From: Cyanidioschyzon merolae
Lineage: Eukaryota
Length of the DNA stretch: 64,000 bases
NCBI GenBank assembly: GCA_000091205.1
Contig: AP006491.2
Direction: 5' to 3' (one strand)
A program made the translations under genes and the position numbers. Each line of letters starts with the position of its first letter. Within the stretch, counting starts at the first letter, position 1. Shown here one piece after another: positions 17,723 through 60,700 of the stretch. The notes beneath the pieces were generated by a model. That model was given only the letters and a program-made list of their open reading frames with translations. It did no database searches and was not told the DNA's origin.

Positions 17723-19774
17723 TTGGTGCTGCGGGCAATGAGTGGCGCCGAGCAAGCAGCCAGCGAGCTGCTTCGGAGCCGTGGCGTCGATGTCGACGGC
17801 CAGCGAAGAGGAAGGCAAAACGGAGACGATTCTGCGAGAAACATCTTCTTTTTCATCGAGAACCAGGGACATCGTGCTGATCCAGTAGCAGTTAGTGAAC
17901 AGTATCGGTCGCTTCGCAGCTGGGTGGAGAACGCACTGGACATGTACAAGGGCGAGCTCGTAAGTGTCTTGTATCCGCTGCTGGTGCATAGCTTCCTGGA
18001 CCTGGTCGAGCAAGGACACCAGGAAGCTGCGGAGAGTTTTCTTAGGCGCTTCGGCAGTGAGTTTCAGGATCGTGGACATCGTGACGAGCTTATTGCGCTC
18101 TCCAGCGTCTCCCTACCGGAGCATATCGGCCAGAATGAAGTGGCTCGCCTGTTTCGGGAGAACAGGTATCAGCTGCAGTTTTCTGCCTATGGATGGCAGC
18201 TCTTGGTGTCTTTCCTACGAGACTCGGGAGGCTTCTTTTTCCTGCGCATACTCAACGAGCACACCCGCGTTCAGATCGAAACCGTCGGCACAGATCCACT
18301 AGCGGATGCTGCCGGGGTCACGGTGGATGCCAAAGCAACGGACGGCTTTGTGGGGGCAAACGAGCGCACGTCACTGCTGCGCATTCCCGTGCAATGGGGC
18401 CTCCTCCGTGAATCAGACTACGTCACTGAGGATACCGAAATTGACATCGATCGCGCCTACTTGGAGCGAATGGCTCGCGAGCGCGATGCGGAGCGTGCGG
18501 TGGCGGATACAACCGGCTCCACGGCGGCCGCCGAAACCAAACCGGGCCCTGCGCCTTCGGGGAAGACTCCCGGAAGCGAACGAGACAAAGCATCGACCGG
18601 CCGCAAGAGCGGTGCTAGAGCAGCCGCGATGTCCAGCCGCGGAGCGGACGGCACCGGAAAGACCTCCGACGCGAGCGGCGGATTTCTAGACATGTCGCAG
18701 TCGATACCGGTGCCTAGAATTTGGCGCTCCTCTGGGATGTTACCGTCACTGGAGGACCTGCGAAAGCGTGTTCAAGTGTCAGCAAACGCGCTCCCATCGG
18801 TGCTCTTCTACACGCTCCTGAACTCCCATGGGTTGGTGAATGCGATGGATATTTCGAACGATGGCTCTCTGCTCGTCACTGGCTGCGATGACTCCGTTCT
18901 GAGACTCTACAAGGTTCGACAGGAGCTTCAGAATACAAGCGAGTCGGACAAGGACCGCGGAACCAATCTTTCTGGAGAGATTCCCTCGCTTTCCGTTTCG
19001 CAGGTCCTGGTGGGCCACGCTGGCCCTGTCTACGCGGTCCATACCTCCGCTGACGGGCGCTACTGCATATCGAGCTCCGAGGACGGCACCGTTCGCCTAT
19101 GGGATCTTCAGCTCGGCACAGACCTCGTAGCGTACCCCTGCCACGAATCACCGATATGGGATGTTCGGTTCGCGCCTCTGGGAAGATATTTTGTGACTGC
19201 CTCACACGATCGCACTGCGCGTCTGTTTTGTACGGATCGACTGTCACCGCTTCGTTTGTTTGCCGGGCATATGACCGATGTAGACTGCGTCAGCTGGCAT
19301 CCTAACTGTAACTATGTGGCAACAGGTTCAAGTGATCGTAGTTGTCGTTTATGGGACTGTCGAACGGGCGACTGCACGCGGATCTTCTTGGGCCATAGGG
19401 CGCCGCTGACGGCGTTGGCGTTCTCTCCAAACGGTCGTCTTCTGGCGACAGCGGATTTCAATGGCACGATTTTGCTCAACGATATCGCTGAGGGTCGCCT
19501 TCTTAAGCGATTCTCTGAGCATACCGATGCCGTTTGGTGCTTAGACTTTTCGCAAGGCGATGGTTCGATACTGGCCAGTGGCGCTGGTGATAACTCCATT
19601 CGGCTGTGGCCGGTGCTTACAAATACGCTGGACGCTTCGGGTTCTTCCGTAGATGCTGTGCATGATTCAAGTTCGTTGCGCGTGATGCGAACAAAGAGCA
19701 CGCCGGTGTTGGGTCTGCGCTTTTCATGGCGCAATTTGTTGCTTGCAGGTGGCTCGTTTCGTGCGTTGACCTAG
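17723..19774 (+). CDS. TAF5: TFIID subunit TAF5-like WD40 protein
   Basis: TAF5 NTD2-like segment (YRSLRSWVENALDMYKGELVSVLYPLLVHSFLDLVEQGHQEAAESFLRRFGSEFQ), then six or more WD40 repeats (VYAVHTSADGRYCISSSEDGTVRLWDL; SWHPNCNYVATGSSDRSCRLWD; ...). 683 aa, single exon. Confidence 0.6.
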   Translation: MVLRAMSGAEQAASELLRSRGVDVDGQRRGRQNGDDSARNIFFFIENQGHRADPVAVSEQYRSLRSWVENALDMYKGELVSVLYPLLVHSFLDLVEQGHQEAAESFLRRFGSEFQDRGHRDELIALSSVSLPEHIGQNEVARLFRENRYQLQFSAYGWQLLVSFLRDSGGFFFLRILNEHTRVQIETVGTDPLADAAGVTVDAKATDGFVGANERTSLLRIPVQWGLLRESDYVTEDTEIDIDRAYLERMARERDAERAVADTTGSTAAAETKPGPAPSGKTPGSERDKASTGRKSGARAAAMSSRGADGTGKTSDASGGFLDMSQSIPVPRIWRSSGMLPSLEDLRKRVQVSANALPSVLFYTLLNSHGLVNAMDISNDGSLLVTGCDDSVLRLYKVRQELQNTSESDKDRGTNLSGEIPSLSVSQVLVGHAGPVYAVHTSADGRYCISSSEDGTVRLWDLQLGTDLVAYPCHESPIWDVRFAPLGRYFVTASHDRTARLFCTDRLSPLRLFAGHMTDVDCVSWHPNCNYVATGSSDRSCRLWDCRTGDCTRIFLGHRAPLTALAFSPNGRLLATADFNGTILLNDIAEGRLLKRFSEHTDAVWCLDFSQGDGSILASGAGDNSIRLWPVLTNTLDASGSSVDAVHDSSSLRVMRTKSTPVLGLRFSWRNLLLAGGSFRALT

Positions 19775-21039
19775 GTTTCCGGTACAACAAGGCAGTCGTA
19801 CCAGTGCGTTAAAGTATAGTGCACCAACTTGTTTTGTCGTCATCGCCAATGCGATACCGTTTTAGCATTGCGTTGGCGATCGGGAAGAGGTATAGAAACA
19901 AGAGGAAGCGTATGCGGATGTTGCTCATGGTAGAGGTTCTGTCACATGGACAGGTGTCGCACTATTTCGAGGGCGCGAGATCCACGTTTTCGATCAAGAA
20001 TGCGATGGATTCAATTTCTTGCGTCGTGCGCGGGGTTTGAGGAACAGCAGAGATCCCTCTCTCTTGGTACGTATGCCTTTCCGGAATCCACTCGATGAAC
20101 CCAGCTTGATGATGGGTTTCACGGGGCGAAATTGCTCCACGAAGCATCATCTCTTCCCTGGCTGGCTGTTGACCAAGTTGACAGCGAATAATTCCAGGAT
20201 AGGAGGTCTCATTTCGTCGACGCAGCCGAGAAGAGCGCGTCTTGAGGAAACGCGGGCGCTCGGGTTGCATGCGCATGCGACGGGACACCAAGATGCCGCT
20301 ATACTCAGGCAGCTTCAATACGTCATCCCATGATACTCGGGGATGTGCCTAGTCAGGGTCTCTTGCATGCTGCGGATACATGCGCGACTTCCGCAACGAG
20401 GCGCTGGATGACGCTCGTCTTTGTTTTGCTTCGCTTTTGGCAGGAGACGCGTCAGTCTCGCATCGACGGACCGCTGGGCGTGCATCCCCATGAACCGGAC
20501 GGGCGCATGCGAGCCAACGTGGACATCAGCCCGCGAGATAGACGGCGTGCATCGACGAGCGGAATAAAGCCTGCAAGTACACCAGCACACTTGTTCATGA
20601 AGAAGCGTATACGTGCGTATACGCGTGAGCGACGGCCTGTTGACGCGCACTGGTGCACACCCGTGGGCCCCATACACGCTGACACGAGCGTACAGCGATA
20701 CACCTCTGGTGTGTGTGTTTGTATGTGTGACACTGGGTACACGTCTCTGTTGGCCTCGACGTCTCCTAGTGTCCGTTCCCGCACGCACAAGCACGATCGC
20801 AGCGTTTCGACTCGTGAACACACATATCGCTAGCACGACATGCTTGCCTAGAACACAGTTCATAGCTGCCCATTCCCTGATCGTTGGCGTATGTTTGCAA
20901 AGCGGCGCATCGCATGACATTGCATCATAACGCACAGGGCGTTGCGCGATGATAATGACACGTCTCCGACCGAGACAACCCGGTACGCTGTACTGCGTCG
21001 CGCCTGCAAAGCGATGAATACTGAATCCTGAGTCATGAG

Positions 21040-21240
21040 TCATGAACGATGCGACGCCACCATCAGCGATCGATCGATTGATTTGACATAGTGTGGCGCT
21101 GCGTGCGCGCGATGCGGCGCCACCATCACCGATCGATCGATTGATTTGACGTAGTGTGGCGCTGCGTGCGCGCGATGCGACGCCACCATCAGCGATCGAT
21201 CGATTGATCTTTGATACTGAGCGCTGTCCTGCAGGTGCAC
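21040..21240. repeat. Tandem repeat, ~61-bp unit x 3
   Basis: Three near-identical copies of ...gatcgatcgattgatttgacgtagtgtggcgctgcgtgcgcgcgatgcg(a/g)cgccaccatca(g/c)c... Confidence 0.85.
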
Positions 21241-21839
21241 ACCGGCGCTGGTGATAGCCTTCTACTTGTGGTCGGTGTAGGTCTTCTTGTCGCCCGTTCG
21301 GAACAGTGTTGAAACTCATAAAAGGTGCACTGTGTTGGTGAGGCAAGTTACTGGGCAGCGCGACTCGGAAAGGTCCTTTGCGATGTGCCGTCTGCAGCTG
21401 CGGGGTGCCGGCTGACGAGAAGCGCTGCGCTCGCAGGATCGAGGCTGGCTACCTGGCCTTGTTTGCTGTTGACAGCTAGCCCTGCGGAACAGGCCTCTCG
21501 CGAGCGTGTGGGCGAGAGCTGTACCGGTGGTCGCGATACCGCGCTTGACAGTTCGAGGGCGCGTCTTGAGCGTGAGCGAGTGATCGAGTCAACGGGTCAA
21601 TCAGGGCACACACCGCTATTGTCTGCTGCGCGGGACGCCTATTGAGTTGCAGGGGTAACCCGGAGTCGAACGGCATCAGACAGTCGTCAACCTTTCCCCA
21701 GCAGCAGCGGGCGTGCGAGCAGCACCGTGTCCCGGCACTCTGTCGGATTCCTCGCTCGGGAGGCGTTCGAAACGCACGCACCGCGCTTTGCCCCTGAGCG
21801 GCGTTTCCGCGCACATCCACAGACGCAGCGTGAAGCGCA

Positions 21840-22877
21840 ATGGACGAACGCGACGTTCTTCGGGTAGGCGTCTGCGCAATGCCGAAGAAAGTCGAGTCTG
21901 AGCCGATGCAGCGGATCCTCGCTGCGCTCACCTCGAGCCGCGTTGCGCACTTCGAGCCGATGATCTTCGATGCGAAGACGCTGTTTGAGCGGCCGATCCA
22001 CGGGTGGCCTGTGTGCGATGCGTTAATTGCGTTCCACTCGGAGGGCTTCCCGCTGGAGCGTGCCATAGCGTACGCGGAACTACGGCGCCCGTACTGCTTG
22101 AACGGCCTGCGCGAGCAGCGGATGCTGCTGGACCGGTCCAAGGTGTACGAGGTGCTGGCACGTGAGCGGGTGCCAGTCCCGCGGCACATTGTTGTGCGCC
22201 ACGACGGAGCCGATGTTGGCCGGACGGATACGCGATTTGTCGAGCACGACGACTACATTGAGTACTGCGGAGAGCGGCTGTTCAAGCCGTTTGTGGAGAA
22301 GCCGATTGACGCGGAGGACCACCGCGTATGCATCTACTACGCACGGCCCTTGTACGGGCGCCGGCGGCTATTTCGGAAGACGGCGAATCAGAGCTCTGTG
22401 TTTGAGCCCGGGTGGCGCCGTGTCCGTCGCGAGGGCGCCTTCATATACGAGGAGTTTATCCCGAGCGAGCACCAGAGCGACATCAAGGTTTACGCTGTTG
22501 GGCCGGAGTACGCGTACGCGGAGCGGCGAAAGTCACCCGTGGTGGACGGTATCGTTGAGCGGAACGCGCACGGCAAGGAGCTGCGATTCCCTGTTGAACT
22601 GAGCACCGCGGAGCGCTGCGTGGCGGCGACGATCACGGCGGCTTTCCGGCAGTTTGTGTGCGGCTTTGATCTCATTCGGCACGCCGACGGCAATGCTTTC
22701 TATGTGAACGACGTGAATGGCTTCAGCTTTGTGAAGGGATCCCAGTCCTACTATGAGTCTTGCGGGCGTATTCTGGCGGAGCATCTAGCCCGCGAGTGTG
22801 CGCGAAGCGCTGCGGTGGATGGCGAGCGACCTCGCAGTGCCCAGCGCTGCAGCGCATCGGACGGGAGCACGCCCTAA
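21840..22877 (+). CDS. Diphosphoinositol-pentakisphosphate kinase (PPIP5K/VIP1) N-terminal ATP-grasp kinase domain only
   Basis: VGVCAMPKKVESEPMQRILAALTS...WPVCDALIAFHSEGFPLERAIAYAELRRPYCLNGL...FKPFVEKPIDAEDHRVCIYY...IYEEFIPSEHQSDIKVYAVGPEYAYAERRKSPVVDGIVERNAHGKELRFPV...FVCGFDLIRHADGNAFYVNDVNGFSFVK is collinear with the human PPIP5K kinase domain. The ORF stops after 345 aa with no histidine-acid-phosphatase domain. Confidence 0.8.
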   Translation: MDERDVLRVGVCAMPKKVESEPMQRILAALTSSRVAHFEPMIFDAKTLFERPIHGWPVCDALIAFHSEGFPLERAIAYAELRRPYCLNGLREQRMLLDRSKVYEVLARERVPVPRHIVVRHDGADVGRTDTRFVEHDDYIEYCGERLFKPFVEKPIDAEDHRVCIYYARPLYGRRRLFRKTANQSSVFEPGWRRVRREGAFIYEEFIPSEHQSDIKVYAVGPEYAYAERRKSPVVDGIVERNAHGKELRFPVELSTAERCVAATITAAFRQFVCGFDLIRHADGNAFYVNDVNGFSFVKGSQSYYESCGRILAEHLARECARSAAVDGERPRSAQRCSASDGSTP

Positions 22878-24210
22878 CGGCGTGTAAGTTCGGGTTGGAT
22901 GGAGTACGCGCTGCATCCGGCAGACAAGAATCCTGTAAAGGAACATGTTTATGGGAGCGTAACTCGGAGCCCGTTGCGCTGAAATGCCGCTAGCATCACT
23001 CGGGATTCATTGATACCTAATGCGGGATATCGTGCAAACGCCTTTCGCGGCAGACGAGAGTACGCATGAGCACTGGGTAAATGGATCATAGAATCGGAGA
23101 GACCGCCTTGTGCCGTCGTGTGTTCAAGAGATCGCCGTCTGGTTTCCTGTAGCCAACGGCAATTGCAGCTGATGCGCCCGCCGCTGATGTATGGCACGAA
23201 CATCGTCGCATAGGCGCTCGGCGAAAATAACTGCTTACTGTTTTCCGATTTAGTCGCCAGTTCCGCGCACTTTGCTGAGCAAAAAAACGTTCAGCAATGC
23301 GTCGGCGATTCCAGCACCTCCTCAAATGTAAAAGCGAAGCGCTTGCGCACATAAAAGCATCGATGATGTGTTCCACGTATGCGATAGATGGGCCTTACGC
23401 ATACCAAGCGGCGTCAAAGCAAGGATCGTTCGCGTTTACGACTAAACACAGTGGTAAAGTGTCGTAGCCATGAGGCGCAGCTGTCGCCTCCGTGCGCATT
23501 CGTTCCCGCAACGCAACGATGGCGACAGCACACCTACGATAGCAATGCAGGTCTCCATTATCACAGCGCATGGGCTTGTGCAAACTTCACGCCTGCCCCA
23601 TGCCGACCTCAGATAGCGCCTGTCTCCTAAGCAGAGCGCTCCACCGAAGCAGCGCACGCTGAACAACACAACAAAGTAGCAGCAACCAGTTCGCGCCTCA
23701 GATACAGTGCCTACCCTACTTTGGCGATATCAACGCAAACGAAGATGCCTGCGCGCGCAAATGCACGGACACACGCACACGGATGCGCCGCAACGTGTGC
23801 CCTCACGCGTGCGCATTGCCGTGCAGCGATGGTGCGTGTCCGATGAGCGCGTGAACGCCGCACGATCCGCGATTCGAATCTACCGGAATGACGTGCACGC
23901 AGCGGTGCGCATGCGTGCCGGCTCGATGCGCCTTATTTCTTGGTGATTCGCGAGCGCCCTCGTTCGAGCAGTCGGCACGATGCTCGCCCAGCTGCACGCC
24001 GATCACTCAAACGAACAGCCAGCGGGGGTTCTGCGCGCGCGCTGCGGCTGCGGCCCCCGAGCGCCATCTCCGAGGCGCAAAGCGCGGCGATCGCTGCATG
24101 CCCGTCCGAGCACCGTGCCGTGTCACGCACATGCGGCGACTGCTGCGCCAACGACATTCAAGAAGCGACTGGAGCAACTGTTCCAGCAGCAGCAGTAGTT
24201 GCAATGCCTA

Positions 24211-24966
24211 TCACTTGTTGCACGCAAAGGTCATATCCGCCTCGACGGCAAGTTCGCCATCGACGTAGCCTCGCCCGCGGCACTTAGCGATGCCAAAGCG
24301 CTTGCGTAGCGCCATCACCTGGCACTCCATCACGAGCACGTCACCCGGACGCACCGGCCGCCGCCAGCGCAGATTCTCCACCGAGGCAAACAGAAACAGC
24401 CTCCCAGGCTCGCTGTCTGGACCGCTCAACAGCATAAGGCCGCAGCACTGCGCGAGCGCCTCGAGCTGCAGCACACCAGGCATAATCTTGGCAGACGGGA
24501 AGTGGCCCTCGAAGAACTGCTCGTTGTACGTGACGTTCTTCACCGCCACGATCCGCTGCTCGGCCGCACACTCCAAAACCTTGTCCACCAGTAGAAACGG
24601 GTAGCGGTGCGGGAGCACGCGCTCAATGGCCTCGGCGTCCAGCACCGCTGCAGGCAGCGCAGAGCGCCGCGACAGCTCCGCTACGTCCGTGGGCGTCGAC
24701 GGCGCCGGCACTGCACTCGTCGCGCTGGGCGCTCCGCCGTTCGCAGCCACCTGCTCGGCGCTGGCGCGTGGCCCGCACCACCGCCGCTGGCGCGGCTGTG
24801 TGCGTACACCGCAGTCAGCCTGGGCAGCGCTCGTCCTCTGGCACGGTCGCAGCAGCAGCAGCGGCGGCGGCTGCAGCCTCGCAGTGGGGCCGAGGCAGAC
24901 CTCTCGGCAGTTGCGCCTACGAGCGAGCAATACGCTGTCTGCTCGTCCAGTTGAACAGAGAAACAT
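24211..24966 (-). CDS. fabZ: 3-hydroxyacyl-ACP dehydratase FabZ (type II FAS, hot-dog fold) with ~100-aa Arg/Ala/Pro-rich N-terminal presequence
   Basis: VLPHRYPFLLVDKVLECAAEQRIVAVKNVTYNEQFFEGHFPSAKIMPGVLQLEALAQ matches the FabZ active-site region (HRYPFLLVD...NEpFFqGHFP..P.mPGVL..EA.AQ). Confidence 0.75.
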   Translation of the reverse strand: MFLCSTGRADSVLLARRRNCREVCLGPTARLQPPPLLLLRPCQRTSAAQADCGVRTQPRQRRWCGPRASAEQVAANGGAPSATSAVPAPSTPTDVAELSRRSALPAAVLDAEAIERVLPHRYPFLLVDKVLECAAEQRIVAVKNVTYNEQFFEGHFPSAKIMPGVLQLEALAQCCGLMLLSGPDSEPGRLFLFASVENLRWRRPVRPGDVLVMECQVMALRKRFGIAKCRGRGYVDGELAVEADMTFACNK

Positions 24967-25093
24967 GTACGAGGCCTATGTTGGAGCAACACACTGTATA
25001 ATCGAGGGTGTTGCGCACAAGCCTAGCGGCGCTCAAATACTGAATACGTGTGCATACCCAAAATCGCAGGCGATAAGTGTCGGTCGATGCGCG

Positions 25094-25270
25094 TCACGCA
25101 ATACGCGTCATGCGATCTGCGCAGTGCGATGTGCGTAGGTCGATACGCATAGTGCGATGCGTGTAGTGCGATGCGTGTAGGTCGTTACGCGCAGTGCGAT
25201 GCGTGTAGTGCGATGCGTGTAGGTCGATACGCGCAGTGCGATGCGTGTAGTGCGATGCGCTCATGCAGCC
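25094..25270. repeat. Tandem repeat (15-bp gtgcgatgcgtgtag subunit within a ~45-bp unit, ~4 copies)
   Basis: Read directly; it produces the ASHYTHRTARIDLH peptide repeats in the spurious ORF 25094-26059. Confidence 0.85.
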
Positions 25271-26933
25271 TCGACAGCAGAGGCGCTGAACACTGGCAGC
25301 GGTGCTGATACTAGCCTTCGCAATCAACTGCATACCAATGCTGGTCATCAGGAACGATGCGCTGGCTGCTCGCAGCGTCAAGTGCTCCTGGCCGGCACCG
25401 AGCTGCTGGCGAGCATCCGTGCGCGCGCGCAGTCGACCGCCGCGACGCCACCGAGGCCTGCCAGTGTCCAAGTTCCAGACGCGCCGCTCAGGCGACCGCG
25501 GCCTCCTGCAACGTCCGAACCTCCCCTGGGGGCACAGATACGGGACCCCGCGGCACACGCGCCTCGCCGGAAGGCAGGTCCATAGGAGCGCCCACCGCGC
25601 CACCTCTGGTGACGGATACCGCTCCAGGTACAGGAGGCAATGGGGTTGCGGCACGCGTAGCAGCGCAGCGGATCCATTTTTAGGCTCGTGCTTGTGAATG
25701 CGCTCCCGAGACGCCGACGAGTGCCTCTGAACTGCATGCAGTCGATGTGCTTGCGCGCTCCCGACCTGCTCCCGAGTCGACAGCAACGCCAATCCTCTGG
25801 CTGGAAAGCAGCGCACTCGGGGCGAGGTATTCCAGCGGCAGAAGTGTGTGCCTGCATAGCGCCGTTGCTGCAGGCGCGACACCGCTGCGCCGAATCGCCC
25901 ACTGTGCTGATGCCGGTCCCGCTGCAGTCCTGCGCTTCGGAAAAGGCGCCCAGCCTCATCTTTGATGCCGTTCCTCATGAGCGAGTGCGACCAGAGATAG
26001 CACTGCACGTCACCGCAAGAAACATCACTGCATTGGCCTGCTGCACGAAAATCAGCCAAAATCGCGCACAGTCCGCGTCGCTACACCATTTGCGGACTCC
26101 ACGCGTGCCTTGGGTTCTGGAAATGTGCATGCTACGCGCCGAGGCATCCAGGTCAGCGCTGGCAAAGGCCTGCGAACCAACCGACAGCCGGTGCTACAAA
26201 CGTGGGCGCAGGTCGCTCATGGGCATGCGCTCGCGTTCGTGACGCTTCTCCAGTCGGTGTCGCGCGCTGCTCGTCATCGCGCACACGTTCTCGCGTAACC
26301 GCTGGAGGCGTGGATCGCAGCTCGCCATCACCGTAGTCGACAGCGAACAGCTCCCGCTCCACGAGTGTCGCCCGCCAGGGCATCGGCGCATTCATACGAT
26401 CGCAAAGCGCCGCGAACCCGCACAGCCATGTCAAAGAAACGGATCGCCTCCACTTGCCGAACTCGGGCGTGCAAATTAAGGTTTAGGTCTCTGCCCAGTG
26501 TCACGAACAGCAGCTTCTGCAGGCTTTCTCTGCGACTGCCTCCTTTTCCCATTTCTTTTCCGGATTCACATACGCCAATATCTCCGTTGCTTGTAACTCC
26601 GTTTACGCTGTCGAAGGATGTTGATGGCAGCGTTCAAGCTCGATTTCGACGCTCCGGATTGTTCTTGACGCATTTCGTGTACAGGCAGAAGTTGCGAACG
26701 ACAGCCGGCTTTGCCATTTTCATCTTCCTTGCATACATACTCGATGCCCTTGGACGCAGCGGTGTATCTTGACTGTGGCCAGATGGTCGCGAAGGTACCC
26801 CAAACTTCGCATTCCGGGTGCTGCTGTGTATCGGCGAAGCGATCGCTGCGTCGCTCGGGAAATGCCGGTGACAGGCAGAGAAAGCTTTCACCGATGCCGA
26901 CCGCGTTTCAGCTGCCGCTGTCGTATGCGGCGA

Positions 26934-27638: not shown

Positions 27639-28135
27639 CCCGAGAACACGACCGGGAATCCCTAAACGAAATATGAATCCATAAGCCCATATTGCTGCAC
27701 TTTCATGTCAAGGCTATCCCTGGAGAGCATGCTCGGAACAAAAAATCTCGTGGTACGAACAGAGCGATCAGTGCTGTGCCACTTTAATCTCATATGCGCT
27801 GATAGACTTTCACATGCATTGCGTTCCACACCCAGGGGAATGGCATCAAATGCTTCTTCACGGTTGATAGTGGATGCGTTCGAAGTGCGCTCAGTTGAGG
27901 AAACAAAAATTCAAGGGAAACTTATGGACATGAAAGTCGGGGATCCTGGAGCCCGATCATCGCCGAGCGCCGACTAAAAACGAGAAAACCCTCTCCTCGC
28001 CGATCGTCGAGTGAAAAAGGGCAAGCGACAAAGAAGAAGAGAAGGAGAGCTTGACGAGAAAAGTGCTTTGCCCGAGGAGACAATGACGAGAATGCAGTGG
28101 CCATGAGGGCACCAGCTTGAGGACGCCTTGCACTG

Positions 28136-28348
28136 GTGAGTTCAAACAGCGACAATGAACGCAAGGAGTTCGTGAACCGAGACTTCACCGCCGCTATCTA
28201 TCTCAGAAGATGTGTGGAGCTGACCACGAGACCCGAGGAGCTGACGCCATCCAACTTCCTGGGTTACACTCTAATGCCCGCAGCGCACAAGGAAAAGCTG
28301 AAACCGTTCGCAGCGGGCCAGTCAAACAAGTCTAGGAGGCGTCCGTGA
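28136..28348 (+). pseudogene. TnpB/Fanzor-like RuvC-III C-terminal fragment (5'-truncated copy)
   Basis: KEFVNRDFTAAIYLRRCVELTTRPEELTPSNFLGYTL...KEKLKPFAAGQS parallels the C-terminus of the 55055-56128 ORF (MEFVNRDFNAASNIRRCAV...PELTRVNFVGQPL...GKLKPFVWGRS). An in-frame stop lies just upstream, at 28118-28120. Confidence 0.5.
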
Positions 28349-36343: not shown

Positions 36344-36579
36344 GACTTGCGGACAGTTCGGGTGATACGGCCGCTTCCAGCGGGTCACAGGAGCGAAGGC
36401 TCTCGACGACCGCCGGGTAAATGAATATCCACGCGCCGATCCCTGCCAGCCCTTTTCGACCGGCCGCTTCTATCGGTTTGCGTTTATCTCGAGGCACACT
36501 TCGAGCGTTAGAAGCTGCCGGACGAGGTTGGCTCCCGTCAGCTCCGCGGGTCTCGTCGTCAGCTCCGCAGGTCTCGTCG

Positions 36580-36822
36580 TCAGATATGGCTGGCGGGGCT
36601 AAAGTCTCGGTTCACGAACTTTATGCGTTTATCGCCACTGGTTGAACTCATCAATGCAAGGAGTCCTCGAACTCGTGCCCTCAGTGCCATGTGCTGCTCT
36701 GACAGCTCTGTGTGCTTTTCTACCGCCGAGGCGCTCCGCTGGCTTCTCTCTATCTCGATCTTCTCAGGTGTAGAGCCCAGATCACTCCTTGGACTTCTCA
36801 TCTCTTCAAAAAATGAACCCAC
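36580..36822 (-). pseudogene. TnpB/Fanzor-like RuvC-III fragment
   Basis: ALRARVRGLLALMSSTSGDKRIKFVNRDFSPASHI parallels ERRAKMRRLLESVSTINDKKLMEFVNRDFNAASNI in the 55055-56128 ORF. Short ORF with no upstream RuvC-I/II. Confidence 0.45.
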
Positions 36823-46417: not shown

Positions 46418-47556
46418 GTTCAGGCTTGAGCCGGAACCGGCTCAGTGCATGCCGCTCTCGTCGCACAGCGCATAGAGAGGTCACCGGAGACCTCGCAGGG
46501 TGGCACGCGCCACACCCGTTGACGACCCGTTTCGCACGCCCGCTCGCTGTGAAAAGTTGACGGCACGCGCTGCTGCGGTGCGTTGCGCTCCCGCAGTCCA
46601 CAGCGCAGTCCAGCGGTCCACTTGGTTGCGAGACTGCTCTGTTCTGGGCACGAGACCCATATCGAAGAGAGATAGAACGGGTACTAGTTTATTAACTCGA
46701 GTGTACACACTAATATTTGAATATCTTCCAACGATTATCAACTTTGGTATTTGTAGGCGCTTTCTGTGGCACCCTCCTTTGCTTCCCTCGCATCTCCGAA
46801 TGGACATAGGGCAATCTTTCCTGCATCGCTGGCTCTGTTGTCAGCAGTCGATGGATGTTGATGGCAGCGTGCAAGTCGGGTATTCTCCGATTCTGGCTCA
46901 TGCGGAAGCATTGAATGCACCGGTGGTAGCCATGAAATCGGGACGCGAATGCGATCATCAGTACGCATCGACTGTTGGCAACGTAACGGACTTGGCTCGC
47001 GTGACCCGCGCCTGCGGGAAGCCGGACATTAGAGCGGAGAAAGGAGTATCCGACGCAGAACAAGGCCGCAAACGCTGATGCTGAATGACAGAGGAAAGAA
47101 ATACAAACATTAGATTGTACACTCGAGTTCGTGAAGTGGTGCCCAGCCCATTCCACGCCCGCGTTGGTGTAAAAAGTCGAAAAATCTATGCGATGGACGC
47201 AGTAGCAGCTGCGTTCGTAGACACCTCGACTGGGTGCCTGAACGGTCGTGCAGAAGCGTCCATTTGGAGATCATCTGGATCCCTGTACAAACAAGTCATT
47301 TAAGTACACTATTGTAATCACTGAGTCATCTTGGACTCGAGCGTACCACACCCGCGAGCGACGCCCTGATGCGCCCGCGCAGTCGGAGCGCAGGCAGCGA
47401 TTGGTGCAGGGATTCGCAAGCAATGGACGCAAATCACTTTGCTGCTCATCGCTTCCGGAAGTATCGTTGGTGGACGCAACTGCACGATAGTGTCCGGCTG
47501 CCAGCGTACATCTATCGAGGAAGCATTGCGCCTTTTTCATTTGATTAACTATTCAT

Positions 47557-49890: not shown

Positions 49891-50039
49891 GGTGTGAAAA
49901 TGCCGCTTCAGGGAAGCTACCGCTGTGCTCCTCGATCTTGAAGCATATGTGGACACTAAAACGATAAACGCTCGGCAAACCGTAGCGTGCATAGAGACAC
50001 CCAGTCACAAACGCTTCCCAGCAAAAATTGCCAGCTGCC

Positions 50040-50260
50040 TGTTGTCGACTTCAGGTTATCCAGGAGCAGAACGAGCCTCAGAGGCTGCACCACAAGTTTG
50101 GATTGCGACAGCGCCTCGAGTCCCGTCTTCGGCACCGCACATTTTTCGGATATGAATGGCGGCGTCCGGGTTGCGGTTCGCGACCTCCATGCGTTTTTTG
50201 CCTCTGGTTCAACGCCTTAACGCAAGGATTGCTAGAACTCGTGCCCTATGTGCTACTACA
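50040..50260 (-). pseudogene. Highly degenerate TnpB/Fanzor-like RuvC-III remnant
   Basis: Reverse-complement translation gives GKKRMEVANRNPDAAIHIRKMCGAEDGTRGAVAIQ, parallel to MEFVNRDFNAASNIRRCAVMAKRAPELTRVNF. The adjacent DNA (50196-50250) is ~75% identical to 36640-36690, the equivalent part of the 36580 copy. Frameshifts are present. Confidence 0.35.
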
Positions 50261-50664
50261 GTCTCGTCATCGTCCCATCGGACAAACATCGGTCCTCTCC
50301 TATCTCTCGTCTCCATCTTCTTCTTCTTCGTTACTTGCTCCTCTCTGCTATATGGTCAGCGACACGAGGATTTTTTCTTTTTGTTTCTGTTGAATCCAGC
50401 GACATCGAATCCTCTGGGATCCGCGACTTCTACGTCCATACATTTCCCCTGGATTTCCATTTCTTCAAATCAAGGCACTTGCATTGCGTCAGCTATAGTA
50501 CGCGAAATAGCATCTGACGACACGCACCTCAGCGTGGCGCCTCGTGGAAATGAACGCTTGTAGAAAGAATCGGCGTGCGAACGTATCGACTCGGTGGCGT
50601 AGACGCCGTCGCTGGCGCTCCGGTTAGCCGGCGTCGCGCAGCAGCGCCTGCGCCACATGAGCTT

Positions 50665-51180
50665 TCCGCTCCCGGGAATCGACATAAACGTTGTCTGGGG
50701 TACGCTAAGATTACCGTTGCTCTGCTCCTGATTTCTGTATTTCTGTATCTGGGAATTTGCGTATTCGCGTATCGGGGAATCGACATAAACGTTGTCTGGG
50801 ACACGCGTAGATTACCGCTGCTCTGCTCCTGATTTCTGTATTTCTGTATCTGCGAATTTGCGTATTTGCGTATCGGGGAATCGACACAAACGTTGTCTGG
50901 GACACGCGTAGATTACCGTTGCTCTGCTCCTGATTTCTGTATTTCTGTATCTGCGAATTTGCGTATTTGCGTATCGGGGAATCGACACAAACATTGTCTG
51001 GGGTACGCTAAGATTACCGTTGCTCTGCTCCTGATTTCTGTATTTCTGTATCTGCGAATTTGCGTATTTGCGTATCGGGGAATCGACATAAACGTTGTCT
51101 GGGGTACGCCTAGATTACCGTTGCTCCGCTCCTGATTTCTGTATTTCTGTATCTGCGAATTTGCGTATTTGCGTATCGCC
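50665..51180. repeat. Minisatellite, ~100-110-bp unit x ~5
   Basis: Repeating unit gggaatcgacataaacgttgtctgggg/acacgc(g/t)tagattaccgttgctctgctcctgatttctgtatttctgtatctgcgaatttgcgtatttgcgtatcg, with a few SNPs between copies. Confidence 0.85.
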
Positions 51181-55054: not shown

Positions 55055-56128
55055 CTAGACGAAATATCTCCCGCCGACATGCAGACGCCTAAAGGTCTTT
55101 AACGACCTGCCCCATACGAATGGCTTCAGCTTCCCCTTGTACAATTCGGCCCTGAGAGGTTGTCCAACAAAGTTGACTCGTGTCAACTCCGGGGCTCTCT
55201 TTGCCATTACTGCACATCTCCTGATATTGCTGGCGGCGTTAAAGTCCCGGTTCACAAACTCCATAAGTTTCTTGTCATTGATTGTACTTACTGATTCAAG
55301 TAGCCTTCGCATTTTCGCCCTCCTTTCCATTTGGTCGTCTGTCAGCCGTCCGTACTTTGCTATATCCTCAGGGCTCCGCTGGCACTTTTCCATATCGACC
55401 CTCTGGGGTGTACAACCCAGTTCATGGTGCGTATACGATGTTCGGAACTCATCTACAGGTATTGTAACAAAACGCCGTGCGCACTCTATGTACGTTCTCG
55501 TAGTTCGAGCTGGTGTACACCCGTTTTGGGTCTTCCAGCGCCCTGCTCCGTATGCTACTACGAGCCTCTGACTTTCATCCTCTTTGAGGGCACTCAACGG
55601 ACTGAAAAAGTTCGCGAACGCCCGCTGCCTCCCACAGCATAGATTCATACGCAAACGAGCACACCGGGGCTTTGTATACTCTTTCCACAGCGCCTCCCAG
55701 TGAGCAGCACGAACTTCACTGAACTCCCGAAAAGCATCAAAGTCCGCTCCGCGGCTCGTCACCTCGCTCAAGGCTTCCAGGTGATCCTTCATTCCTGAAT
55801 TCCATGTCTCAGTTTTCTTTCTTGCATTCCTTGTACCGGATTCTCGATAGTACCTTGCTCTCGAGAACCTCAACAGACGCATGTCTTTCTGACGCAAGTT
55901 GCCGGCAGTACCATCTTCCGCACGTTTGGGTACTGCGATGGTTATGATATTTGTGTTTCCGGGGTTCACACCTACCGCAAAGTCGTCACCGTGCACTTTC
56001 TGCATCGCAGGATCCGCCACCTTCTCATCTTCATGCTTTGTCACGGGCGCAGCCGAGGGCGGAACTGGACGATCCGCCTTCAAGCGCCGATAGCGTACAC
56101 ACATGGCTACTCCATCGGTTTCGATCAT
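55055..56128 (-). CDS. TnpB/Fanzor-like RuvC nuclease-fold ORF (eukaryotic OMEGA/IS605-OrfB homolog); RuvC-I Asp replaced by Asn
   Basis: RuvC-I-like FAVGVNPGNTNIITIA (cf. GIDPG); bridge and RuvC-II region LVVAYGAGRWKTQNGCTPARTTRTYIECARRFVTIPVDEFRTSYT (cf. vaiGdw...V..VdEyrTSk); degraded Zn-finger (GCTPQ...KCQRS); RuvC-III MEFVNRDFNAASNIRR (cf. nRDvNAAiNI). Sits in a distinctly AT-richer ~2.8-kb island. Confidence 0.55.
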   Translation of the reverse strand: MIETDGVAMCVRYRRLKADRPVPPSAAPVTKHEDEKVADPAMQKVHGDDFAVGVNPGNTNIITIAVPKRAEDGTAGNLRQKDMRLLRFSRARYYRESGTRNARKKTETWNSGMKDHLEALSEVTSRGADFDAFREFSEVRAAHWEALWKEYTKPRCARLRMNLCCGRQRAFANFFSPLSALKEDESQRLVVAYGAGRWKTQNGCTPARTTRTYIECARRFVTIPVDEFRTSYTHHELGCTPQRVDMEKCQRSPEDIAKYGRLTDDQMERRAKMRRLLESVSTINDKKLMEFVNRDFNAASNIRRCAVMAKRAPELTRVNFVGQPLRAELYKGKLKPFVWGRSLKTFRRLHVGGRYFV

Positions 56129-57749: not shown

Positions 57750-60700
57750 GCTGCAATGCATTGCATGCGCCGCCAAGACCAAGCCCGGAGACTAACCAAC
57801 AAGTCACTTGCAGCCTTCCGAGAAATGATAACGAATTATCAGTACATTAACGAAGAAGAGACACCAATAGAGGACTGTACAATAGGAAAAGAGACCCAAC
57901 CAGATACGGAGAAGGAGGCACAAAGTCCTCATGATCCACTTAGATGCAAAATATCCAGAGAGAGCAGCTCAGGAAAGAGCCCGAAGAAGAAGAAGGCCAA
58001 CGAGAAAAAATAGATGAATAGAAAAAAGAACTCCCGAACGAGCCCATCACAACTTATTCCCCGGAAAGAGCACCCCAGCGGGAACTCAAGAAAACCGTCA
58101 CCAAACCCAGTCACCTGCTCACAGCGCTGAAGATCCGAAATGCCGTGCATGCAAATCTTTAGACCAATTGGCACGCGAGTTTGTAGATGGGAATCAGAAG
58201 ACTGCCAGAGAACTGGGACTGCTTGCACCAGATCGCAACAGTTTCAAACCTCAGTACCTCAAACGACGTACCAAAACTCGGATTGTTGAATGCTACCGAC
58301 TCAACAAGATCCTCAACCGCACCGACATACGCACCAACGCCGGAGACAAGGAAGCGAAGGCAGCGCTACCGGCGCTACAGGCACAACATGAGGACGCTAT
58401 CAAAAGAAAGAAGAAACTTTCCAGAGAAGACAAACGAGAGGATCGAAACCGCAAAATCGACTCCCTGACGGAATTTATGCTCGAGAGCACCAACGAAGAT
58501 GAGACCTGGCGCTCCATTCGATCGAGACTGGACCCACCAAAAAAGTGCCTGGGGCTCACACCAATCGTTTATAAGGAAGCGCTGAGGACGGAGCGTGCCT
58601 CAGTGAATGAGGCCTGGACGGACCACGGCACAGAGCTGCATGAAGACGCAACTGGGCACTGCCGAAACCGAATCTATTGGCACCAATATGCTGCACAACT
58701 ACCGCGCCTCGACCCGGTACCGGAATGGAACGACCCAATCTTCTGGCCTGAATCTGTTCGGGCCCTGCTATGCTCAAGCAACCGCAAAACACCTGGCATT
58801 GACGGTATCCCTGCGGAGTGGATGAAACTGGTGACCCCAAAAGACGAGACAACAGGGACACCATCGATACCAGATGAACCTGACACAATCTTAGGCAAAC
58901 GCCTTGTGGAGCTCATTCAACGTATGTTCGAAGAAGCGTACATCCCTGATATATGGAGGACTGTCGAGGTCGCACCGATCCTCAAAAAGGACTCCCACAC
59001 ACACAAAGACATGAACATCTACCGGACTATTCGCCTCATCCTGTCAATCATGAATCTACTTTGCGCCATGCTCACGAACCGGATCCAGAGGCGCCTCGAG
59101 GAACGCAAGTTCTTCGCCCCAGAACAGGCTGGATTCCGGAGCCGCGATGAGTGCATGAACCATGCCCTGACCCTCATTGAAGTGGCGCAACGTCGCTTTA
59201 TTCGTGACCGACAACCAACTTACGTATGCTTCACCGACTTCCGAAAGGTCTTTGACACGGTCCCGCATGATGCTCTCTTTTTGAAGATGGAACGAGCCGG
59301 AGTCTCCAGAAAGTGCTTAGCGTTCTTCCGTGCGCTCTATGCAGACTCGTGGATGCGCATCCGACTGGGCGACAGCTCAAGAACCCCTTGTATAAGAATA
59401 CGCCGTGGACTACAAAAGGGCGAGCGCGCATCCCCGCTCCTTTTCAACATCTTCATCAACGATCCGCTGAAAAACTGCAGACAATACGGGCTTGAGGTGC
59501 CGTGGATAGACTGGGGAGATGCCCGATGAGGAGCCCTCACATAGGAACCGCCTCGCAGGCCTTCTACTTGCGGACGATGTCGTGCTGTTGGCACCCGCCC
59601 CGGAAACGCTTGCGGCTAGCATGCAACAAGTCAGCACCTGGGTCGATCGCTGGGAGATGAACGTAGGAGCATCGAAGTGCGGCGTCATGGCCATCCATGG
59701 AGACTCGCAGCGCATTCGCAATCGCTCGTGGCGGTTGCAGAATCAGGAAATTCCGATCGTGGAAAACTATCGCTACCTGGGGGTCGGTCTAACGCCGACG
59801 CTCGACGAAAAGGCACACGTCGACGAGATGATCGCCAAGATGCATAGACGTACAGCGATCGCACGTCCATTCCCATCCGACCCCTCTATCTGCATAGCAA
59901 TTCGTACCAGGGCACGAAGGATGTGTATCATCCAGCCTGCGACCTGGGGTGCTGAGTGATGCGGCATGAACCACACAAATGCCTCGCGTCCGCAGACAGC
60001 CGCCAACAGGGCAATGCGACTCGTTGTCGTTGTTTGATGCTCAGTGCAGAGCAGAGCAACCACCGCGCTGGCACTCGGACTTGAACTCCAAATACCCTCG
60101 ATAGAAGCGATAGCAGCAGGCTGCCGGGCACGTATATGGGCCAAAAGGGTCCACCAAGCGCACCTGGTTCAGTCGGAGTTTCATGCAAACCCCAACGCAC
60201 CGCAAGATCACTTGGATGAAACCAACGCATATTTGGCTGAAGCGCCTCTTAGGCGAAAATGCGCTCGAATCGTTCCCCAGGAATGTAGAAGACTTCAGAC
60301 GCCTGAAGCGAACGGTCCAAACGCCAATATGGGAAAGTAGACACGGTACCAGTCGCGCGAGTAACGCCGGCTTGACTCTATACCGGAAATAGAACCTATT
60401 ATACACATGCAAGTACTGGTTGGAGGCGCTGGAATTCCCCGGACTTGCTCGAGGTACCCAGTGGCTCGCCAAAATCCGCGTTGGTGGCTTCTGGCTACCA
60501 GCACCGGCTCTAAGCCGTATAGGAATACTGGAATCGCACTGGGAGTCACACTGTCCCTGCTGTGGAGACGAGAGCCCCCGAGACGCTGACACATTTAGGC
60601 CTACAGTGCCCGCACTGGAAGCAGGAGCGCAGCGAGCTCCTTGGAGGACAGCAGCAGCTGGGCATCACCATGATAGTCGAAGGCCGGACACTCACTCTGA

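Follow-up and report, generated by a model that had tools for sequence, protein, structure and literature searches.

The window analyzed here, 64 kb of Cyanidioschyzon merolae DNA (contig AP006491.2), carries an intronless gene on its plus strand whose product has the kinase domain of PPIP5K/Vip1-type enzymes and no fused phosphatase domain. It lies between a gene for a TAF5-like WD40 protein and a convergent gene for a FabA/FabZ-type dehydratase, which we used as synteny anchors (Table 1). The coding sequence occupies positions 21840–22874, from the ATG at 21840 to the last codon at 22872–22874, and predicts a product of 345 residues. It is followed by a TAA stop at 22875–22877; the initial annotation had put the stop one codon too far, at 22878–22880. 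The six-frame open reading frame (ORF) around the gene opens at 21834 and similarity to PPIP5K2 starts at residue 4. As an in-frame TGA precedes the ATG by two codons, this ATG is the sole possible start and the N-terminus is complete. An exact-sequence look-up found the product to be identical to C. merolae 10D BAM80081.1/XP_005536367.1, from a record of 810,151 bp. At NCBI this protein is labeled “hypothetical protein, conserved”, and the same 345-residue protein is UniRef M1UR61, named “ATP-grasp domain-containing protein”. Near-identical metagenome copies have been annotated automatically by JGI as inositol hexakisphosphate/diphosphoinositol-pentakisphosphate kinase.

Table 1. Position of the kinase gene, its parts and its neighbors in the 64-kb window.
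Feature	Position	Strand	Evidence
Stand-alone PPIP5K/Vip1-type kinase gene, intronless, complete	21840–22877	+	ORF list, sequence, Pfam, PDB sequence match
In-frame TGA, two codons 5′ of the ATG	21831–21833	+	Direct sequence reading
PPIP5K2_N alpha/beta domain, residues 8–98, including substrate-contact lysines K16/K17	21861–22133	+	Pfam PF18086
ATP-grasp catalytic core, residues 99–324	22134–22811	+	Alignment to 3T7A, residue map, Pfam RimK (residues 200–300), model
Short C-terminal tail, residues 325–345, without homology, predicted disordered, species-variable	22812–22874	+	pLDDT, orthologue comparison
Intergenic spacer of 1.33 kb, from the PPIP5K stop to the 3′ end of the convergent FabZ-like gene	22878–24210		Searches and locus gene tables
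FabA/FabZ-type dehydratase, convergent downstream neighbor, synteny anchor	24211–24966	-	Pfam FabA, 9.9e-29
TAF5-like WD40 protein (TFIID_NTD2 and WD40 repeats), upstream neighbor, synteny anchor	17723–19774	+	Pfam

The identity of the protein is clear from several comparisons. Pfam detects the PPIP5K2_N domain (PF18086) over profile positions 2–90 of 90 (E=2.3e-31, 108 bits, cut-off 35) and a marginal RimK ATP-grasp match at residues 200–300 (24 bits, cut-off 21). The best sequence matches in the PDB are the human PPIP5K2 kinase-domain entries 3T7A/3T54 (E=1e-92), in which residues 4–324 of the query align with residues 6–318 of the 330-residue chain; the kinase domains of Saccharomyces cerevisiae Vip1 and Schizosaccharomyces pombe Asp1 come next. 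The protein is identical to the human kinase domain at 47% of 312 aligned positions and scores 454 bits with a hidden Markov model (HMM) of the PPIP5K family. An AlphaFold2 model, built from a nine-sequence alignment, has a mean predicted local distance difference test (pLDDT) score of 80 and a predicted template-modeling score of 0.78. Predicted disorder is confined to a few loops and to residues 329–345, where pLDDT falls below 50. When the model was compared with the PDB using Foldseek, PPIP5K2 kinase-domain structures ranked first, with template-modeling (TM) scores of 0.85 normalized to the query and 0.90–0.92 normalized to the target and a root-mean-square deviation of ∼2.1 Å. The Vip1 and Asp1 kinase domains followed, giving a TM range of 0.82–0.91 over the whole PPIP5K2/Vip1/Asp1 set. 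We rejected an identity as RimK, an ITPK1-type enzyme or a D-Ala-D-Ala ligase, for which TM was 0.5–0.6 at 11–18% identity, as compared to 0.85 and 45% for PPIP5K2. Since the match to the 3T7A chain is full-length, the kinase domain is complete, as was proposed in the initial annotation, and its only addition is a tail of 21 residues.

Residues of PPIP5K2's transition-state structure were mapped onto the C. merolae protein by alignment. The substrate-contact lysines K53/K54 (K16/K17 in C. merolae), R134 (R99), H194 (H161), R213/K214 (R179/K180), K248 (K216), R262 (R230), R273 (R241) and R281 (R249), the metal ligands D309 (D277) and D321 (D291), and finally N323 (N293) and K329 (K299) are identical in the two proteins. 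The same holds for all 12 positions that have been mutated in Asp1. These include the five at which alanine substitution abolishes kinase activity, namely H204, R223, K260, D321 and D333 (PMC9239264). The equivalents of R213 and K248, both essential in PPIP5K2 (PMC9239264), are also kept. Judged by this alignment, the residues that bind ATP, two Mg2+ ions and inositol phosphates in the human and fission yeast enzymes are all conserved.

Canonical members of the family continue beyond the kinase with a histidine-acid-phosphatase-like domain (PF00328, RH[G/A]xRxP). Most of the best 150 representatives in a library search were 900–1300 residues long, which agrees with the length of about 1000 residues assumed in the initial annotation. 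In the window this domain is not fused to the kinase, as the ORF stops 21 residues past the kinase domain. Our search for it covered the 64-kb window and ∼50 kb at the orthologous loci. Within the 64 kb, tblastn with 120 homologues, some of which extended into the phosphatase region by up to 280 residues, gave no credible match outside the ORF. With eight full-length PPIP5Ks (912–1161 residues), the best match outside the ORF in the whole 64 kb had E=0.27. An HMM made from 30 PPIP5K phosphatase domains, run with filters off against six-frame stop-to-stop frames of at least 30 residues, reached E=5.1 at best. The initial annotation had reported no RHGDRTP-like motif in the 1.3 kb downstream, and this can be extended, as the pattern RH[AGS][DE]R is absent from all six frames of the window. 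A Pfam scan of 28 other large ORFs in the window detected no His_Phos_2, NUDIX or dual-specificity phosphatase domain, and the three orthologous loci contained no trace of the phosphatase domain. For the spacer downstream of the gene, tblastn, HMM and motif scan agree that there is no phosphatase-domain coding potential in any frame. At 1.33 kb, the spacer is also too short for a phosphatase domain of 450–700 residues. A spliced downstream exon encoding the phosphatase, which the initial annotation had considered, is refuted as far as the sequence goes.

Orthologues were found in two further genera of the Cyanidiaceae and in metagenomes. The Cyanidiococcus yangmingshanensis protein has 331 residues and is 76% identical; the protein of Cyanidium caldarium and a matching ENA contig has 374 residues and is 60% identical. 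Both end just past the kinase domain, the Cyanidiococcus protein 14 residues earlier than that of C. merolae and with a different tail. Many hot-spring metagenome contigs encode a protein of 345 residues with 99% identity, and among the cluster members listed most are 345 residues long and three are 329. The orthologous loci are referred to as L001 (Cyanidiococcus), L002 (the hot-spring metagenome relative) and L083 (the Cyanidium-type contig). In Cyanidiococcus, a WD40 gene is followed in order by PPIP5K, DMRL synthase (minus strand), FabA, S41 peptidase and AOX. L002 has the same order, and its DNA is 98.9% identical across the PPIP5K gene. The Cyanidium-type contig has the DMRL synthase gene on the opposite strand, starting only 140 bp past the PPIP5K stop. 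The order PPIP5K, DMRL synthase, FabA and S41 peptidase is common to the three relatives' loci, and the FabA/FabZ-type anchor is shared by all of them and the window. The orthologues of 331, 374 and 345 residues thus all end past the kinase domain and lie in synteny, which answers the question on related species raised in the initial annotation. Using the Nei-Gojobori method, we obtained dN of 0.16, dS of ∼1.4 and dN/dS of 0.11 against the Cyanidiococcus gene, indicating that the PPIP5K gene is under purifying selection.

These data bear on the suggestion that the short ORF is an artefact, which the initial annotation had considered in the form of an assembly or frameshift error: the stop could be a sequencing or assembly error, a frameshift could hide the phosphatase, or the gene could be a truncated pseudogene in decay. 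In favor of this, a rearrangement breakpoint lies 8 bp past the stop, and the sequence from 22886 on differs from that of the close metagenome relative. However, an independent metagenome assembly shows the same stop and the same length of 345 residues, as do most cluster members listed, the more distant genera also end right past the kinase domain, and the downstream DNA has no similarity to the phosphatase in any frame. With four independent assemblies sharing the end point, a dN/dS of 0.11 and an intact active site, a misassembly, frameshift, hidden exon or pseudogene is excluded, and we consider an artefact or a decaying gene to have next to no probability. The short architecture is conserved across the Cyanidiaceae, in three genera and the metagenome relative, and the possibility of a genuine kinase-only PPIP5K, as put forward in the initial annotation, is borne out by this conservation together with the dN/dS value and the active site.

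The breakpoint itself was located by blastn against L002. At 22886–23286 the window has 401 bp of unrelated sequence in place of a 1.77-kb segment that carries the DMRL (lumazine) synthase gene in the relatives. The replaced segment corresponds to L002 2523–4288, L001 11941–12651 and L083 9265–9957. A tblastn search of the entire window detected no DMRL synthase. A second rearrangement breakpoint is found at 26389, within 4 kb of the first (22886). Here, similarity to the metagenome relative stops abruptly: at 26156–26389 on the minus strand, only the last 78 residues (425–502) of the relative's S41 C-terminal processing peptidase are present, with 98.7% identity, and the remainder of this gene is absent from the window.

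A kinase-only PPIP5K has been described before. Dictyostelium discoideum Ppip5k (DDB_G0284617), a 56 kDa protein, “completely lacks the phosphatase domain” (Desfougeres et al., 2022, PMC8885430). It rescues a yeast vip1-delta mutant, whose biochemical and PHO phenotypes are reverted, and its product is 1/3-IP7, as for the mammalian enzyme (PMC8885430). The authors of that study note that loss of the phosphatase domain may abolish the proposed futile cycle. Given this documented and functional case, the arrangement in C. merolae is not unprecedented. For the family as a whole, the part of a 2026 review that summarizes Randall et al. (2020) describes bifunctional PPIP5K as ancient in eukaryotes (PMC13573052), and the entry for the histidine-acid-phosphatase family in the same review gives Mycetozoa only under “lost from/not found in”. 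A eukaryote-wide kinase survey included no red algae and did not analyze PPIP5K domain loss (PMC8024741), and a paper on Lotus VIH2 used sequences from Galdieria, Porphyridium and Cyanophora as kinase domains only. In our literature search we found no paper mentioning a kinase-only PPIP5K from red algae or glaucophytes. The cyanidiophycean form therefore appears to be undescribed. Since the literature found reports kinase-only PPIP5K for slime molds only, the kind is known and the red-algal case is a modest extension of it.

Taken together, we consider it probable, from sequence and by analogy, that C. merolae 10D has here a genuine nuclear gene of the expressed type, encoding a stand-alone PPIP5K/Vip1 kinase without a fused phosphatase, and that the enzyme is a candidate producer of 1-InsP7 and 1,5-InsP8. 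It is predicted to transfer the gamma-phosphate of ATP to the 1-phosphate of inositol hexakisphosphate (InsP6) and, preferentially, of 5-InsP7. The products would be 1-InsP7 from InsP6 and 1,5-InsP8 from 5-InsP7. We predict this 1-kinase activity because of the residue conservation, the homology, and the data on the Dictyostelium enzyme and on the isolated kinase domain of Asp1, which is active alone (PMC9239264). Without a histidine-acid-phosphatase domain there would be no built-in kinase/phosphatase futile cycle and no phosphatase switch inhibited by inorganic phosphate (Pi). The level of InsP8 would then be set by the supply of 5-InsP7 and ATP and by separate hydrolases. One candidate hydrolase of inositol pyrophosphates (PP-InsPs) is the DIPP-type Nudix domain that is reported to be fused to PPK1 in C. 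merolae. A bacterial-type PPK1 has been described in this alga (PMC3680246), and the PPK1–Nudix fusion is reported there as involved in polyphosphate accumulation, in a statement cited in PMC12526157. The InsP8 signal could be read by the two SPX-domain proteins reported for C. merolae, SPX proteins being the usual InsP8 receptors (PMC8717665).

Some observations weigh against a stand-alone 1,5-InsP8 synthase of this kind. One concerns the proposed hydrolase: in its statement on DIPP-type Nudix enzymes the 2026 review gives these as “not found in protists” (PMC13573052), which conflicts with the report of the PPK1–Nudix fusion. Another is that the C. merolae protein differs beside the ligand positions, with Thr181 following R179-K180, Tyr226 in place of His258, and a loop that is one residue longer before D214. 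As these positions flank substrate ligands and differ from the bifunctional enzymes, an altered specificity is possible. The kinase could thus have kept the PPIP5K fold and been re-purposed, making another InsP7 or InsP8 isomer or using another polyphosphorylated substrate. The 47% identity to the human domain leaves room for such a shift, the Thr181 equivalent is found in none of the 85 bifunctional forms examined, and Dictyostelium has unusual PP-InsP isomers overall. On the other hand, the residues in direct contact with the ligands are all identical, and the kinase-only enzyme of Dictyostelium makes the same 1/3-IP7 as the mammalian one. We regard a shifted specificity as improbable.

The remaining counterpoint concerns the phosphatase. 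With a phosphatase-domain alignment, 484 loci were detected in JGI metagenome contigs, and none of the best 80 of these came from the metagenome of L002. The Cyanidiaceae could have retained the phosphatase half as a gene of its own at another locus, its product working in trans or bound to the kinase in a complex. The sequence seen comprises the 64-kb window and ∼50 kb of related loci only, so that there is room for such a gene, and it is mechanistically feasible, as the two domains of full-length enzymes are catalytically autonomous according to the relevant statement in PMC7196807. Against a split enzyme stands the absence of any phosphatase trace in the window and at the three orthologous loci. 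Moreover, Mycetozoa, the only documented kinase-only lineage, are listed in the review's family entry as having no related phosphatase gene in the genome (PMC13573052). The result of the metagenome scan adds a weak argument in the same direction, since the hot-spring metagenome that gave none of the best 80 of the 484 loci contains a 153-kb contig of the close relative. We think a split enzyme has little chance of being correct.

In order to assess the distribution of the short architecture, we compared 229 homologues with a complete kinase domain and defined a short form as one ending within 80 residues of the kinase domain. Short forms were found in the glaucophytes Cyanophora paradoxa (373 residues) and Gloeochaete wittrockiana (316/325 residues, a transcript ORF flagged “complete”), in Heterolobosea sp. 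BB2 (360 residues, flagged “complete”), and in the dictyostelids Cavenderia fasciculata (388 residues), Acytostelium subglobosum (348 residues), D. discoideum (475 residues) and D. citrinum (456 residues). The last three were added by a database search with a short-form profile, which retrieved no further named red algae. In a neighbor-joining tree based on BLOSUM62, the Cyanidiaceae fall inside a 14-member clade consisting entirely of short proteins. With Kimura-corrected distances and 200 bootstraps, monophyly of the Cyanidiaceae was supported at 100% and exactly defined larger clades at no more than 2.5%. The sister group of the Cyanidiaceae was all kinase-only in 82.5% of the 200 bootstraps, in a set where short taxa make up less than one third and many of them are fragments; the commonest sisters were the glaucophytes and Heterolobosea sp. 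BB2.

Two sequence features follow this grouping in part. The Cyanidiaceae, both glaucophytes, the heterolobosean and four metagenomic short forms have a Thr after the FRK motif, which is seen in 0 of 85 forms with at least 400 residues past the kinase domain; in dictyostelids this position is Val or Ile. The loop with the additional residue occurs in 33 short forms and also in three long and two intermediate forms, at least one of these being fungal. We also compared an HMM made from eight non-cyanidiophycean short forms with HMMs from sets of eight random bifunctional forms. The Cyanidiaceae showed a small preference, scoring 8 to 17 bits higher on the short-form HMM than on the bifunctional HMMs, and bifunctional controls scored 45–60 bits lower on the short-form HMM. 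No alignment column passed as discriminating, when this was defined as at least 80% conserved in long forms and at least 70% different in short forms. One reading of these patterns is that the short PPIP5Ks of Cyanidiaceae, glaucophytes, the heterolobosean and dictyostelids are one ancient stand-alone lineage, a paralogue from the era of the last eukaryotic common ancestor or a pre-fusion form, and not the result of independent losses. Such a lineage would be marked by the Thr after the R-K substrate pair and by the longer loop. Although the comparisons hint at a common origin, we consider it a rather doubtful proposition, as these patterns could also be the outcome of long-branch attraction between sequences that evolve fast.

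Few eukaryotes have been reported to carry a bacterial-type PPK1, and both kinase-only lineages on which something has been published, Dictyostelium and C. merolae, belong to them. As both have this enzyme, an ancient stand-alone design, if there is one, may be tied to polyphosphate made by PPK1 instead of VTC. Dictyostelium uses PPK1 (PMC3680246), and its polyphosphate is independent of Ppip5k (PMC8885430). The correlation has an exception in Capsaspora, where PPK1 and a bifunctional PPIP5K occur together.

The surroundings of the gene and the rest of the window contain several repeats and other features. The spacer 5′ of the PPIP5K gene has a 63-bp tandem repeat at 21047–21208 (2.6 copies, 94% matches), which falls inside a minus-strand ORF of 343 residues at 20315–21346. 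This ORF has no Pfam match, and its counterpart in the metagenome relative was predicted to be a gene. The TTG start of the TAF5-like gene was assigned mechanically and may differ from the true start. Just upstream of the start of the FabZ-like gene, a tandem array at 25056–25279 is made up of 14-bp and 42-bp units (∼10 and 3.8 copies, respectively). Another array of ∼300 bp with an 8-bp period is located at 1151–1461, and a third at 50663–51178 has about five copies of a 101-bp unit with 91–93% identity. A dispersed repeat of ∼110 nt occurs in four copies on both strands, at 28098–28210, 36577–36689, 50146–50253 and 55220–55327, with 69–78% identity. Beside these repeats, 27823–28251 and 49958–50537 resemble L002 10039–10587 at ∼65–67%. 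The plus-strand ORF at 58168–59529 contains a reverse-transcriptase domain (RVT_1, 1.3e-13) and is probably a retroelement remnant; the 56–60 kb stretch has a lower G+C content (0.47–0.54) and a strong AT skew. A possible second kinase-domain relic was noted in an intergenic ORF at 46500–47078 on the plus strand, which weakly matched the central kinase part of distant species (best tblastn E=0.008, pairwise E=4e-5, 28% identity over 130 residues). We dismissed it as probably due to chance, as the family HMM with filters off gave nothing at E up to 10 and there was no Pfam match.

PPIP5K/Vip1 is regarded as a two-way switch, the Pi-inhibited phosphatase half of which is thought to let InsP8 report the phosphate status of the cell. 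The Cyanidiaceae have a conserved kinase-only enzyme, as do apparently glaucophytes and a heterolobosean, which indicates that more lineages than slime molds can dispense with the phosphatase half. With two SPX proteins and PPK1-based polyphosphate, C. merolae could be a natural minimal system for studying the control and readout of InsP8 in the absence of an internal futile cycle. The alga has a very small genome (16.5 Mb) that is completely sequenced and almost intron-free, and gene targeting is efficient. The gene also gains an annotation, as it has been named a conserved hypothetical or ATP-grasp domain-containing protein although its identity is clear. If the short forms did constitute an ancient lineage, the “universal, ancestral” kinase–phosphatase fusion would have an old monofunctional sibling, and InsP8 signaling without a built-in Pi-sensitive phosphatase would be an ancient alternative design.

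Among known systems, general ATP-grasp enzymes such as RimK, ITPK1 and D-Ala-D-Ala ligase share the overall fold with the C. merolae protein but are much more distant and have no PPIP5K2_N signature. Human PPIP5K2, Vip1, Asp1 and plant VIH have an orthologous kinase domain with the same fold and identical catalytic and substrate-binding residues. They differ in having the phosphatase domain (RHxDRxP) and regulatory or disordered regions, all of which are missing here, and the bifunctional family measures ∼900–1300 residues as compared to 345. The glaucophyte and Heterolobosea sp. BB2 homologues are similarly short, end just past the kinase domain and share both the FRK-T signature and the additional loop residue. 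Their identity to the C. merolae protein is 46–52%, they are represented by gene models or transcriptome ORFs only, and we found no paper on their architecture. The closest characterized counterpart is Dictyostelium Ppip5k, likewise a PPIP5K kinase domain without a histidine-acid-phosphatase domain. Its alignment with the C. merolae protein extends along the entire domain (39% identity, E=3e-81), and in the neighbor-joining trees dictyostelid and cyanidiophycean proteins fall in one loose short-form group. The Dictyostelium protein (P0298) is longer, its 475 residues including a low-complexity C-terminal extension, and it is without the signature Thr after FRK. It also belongs to another eukaryotic supergroup and has been characterized experimentally, whereas the C. 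merolae protein is known from its sequence.

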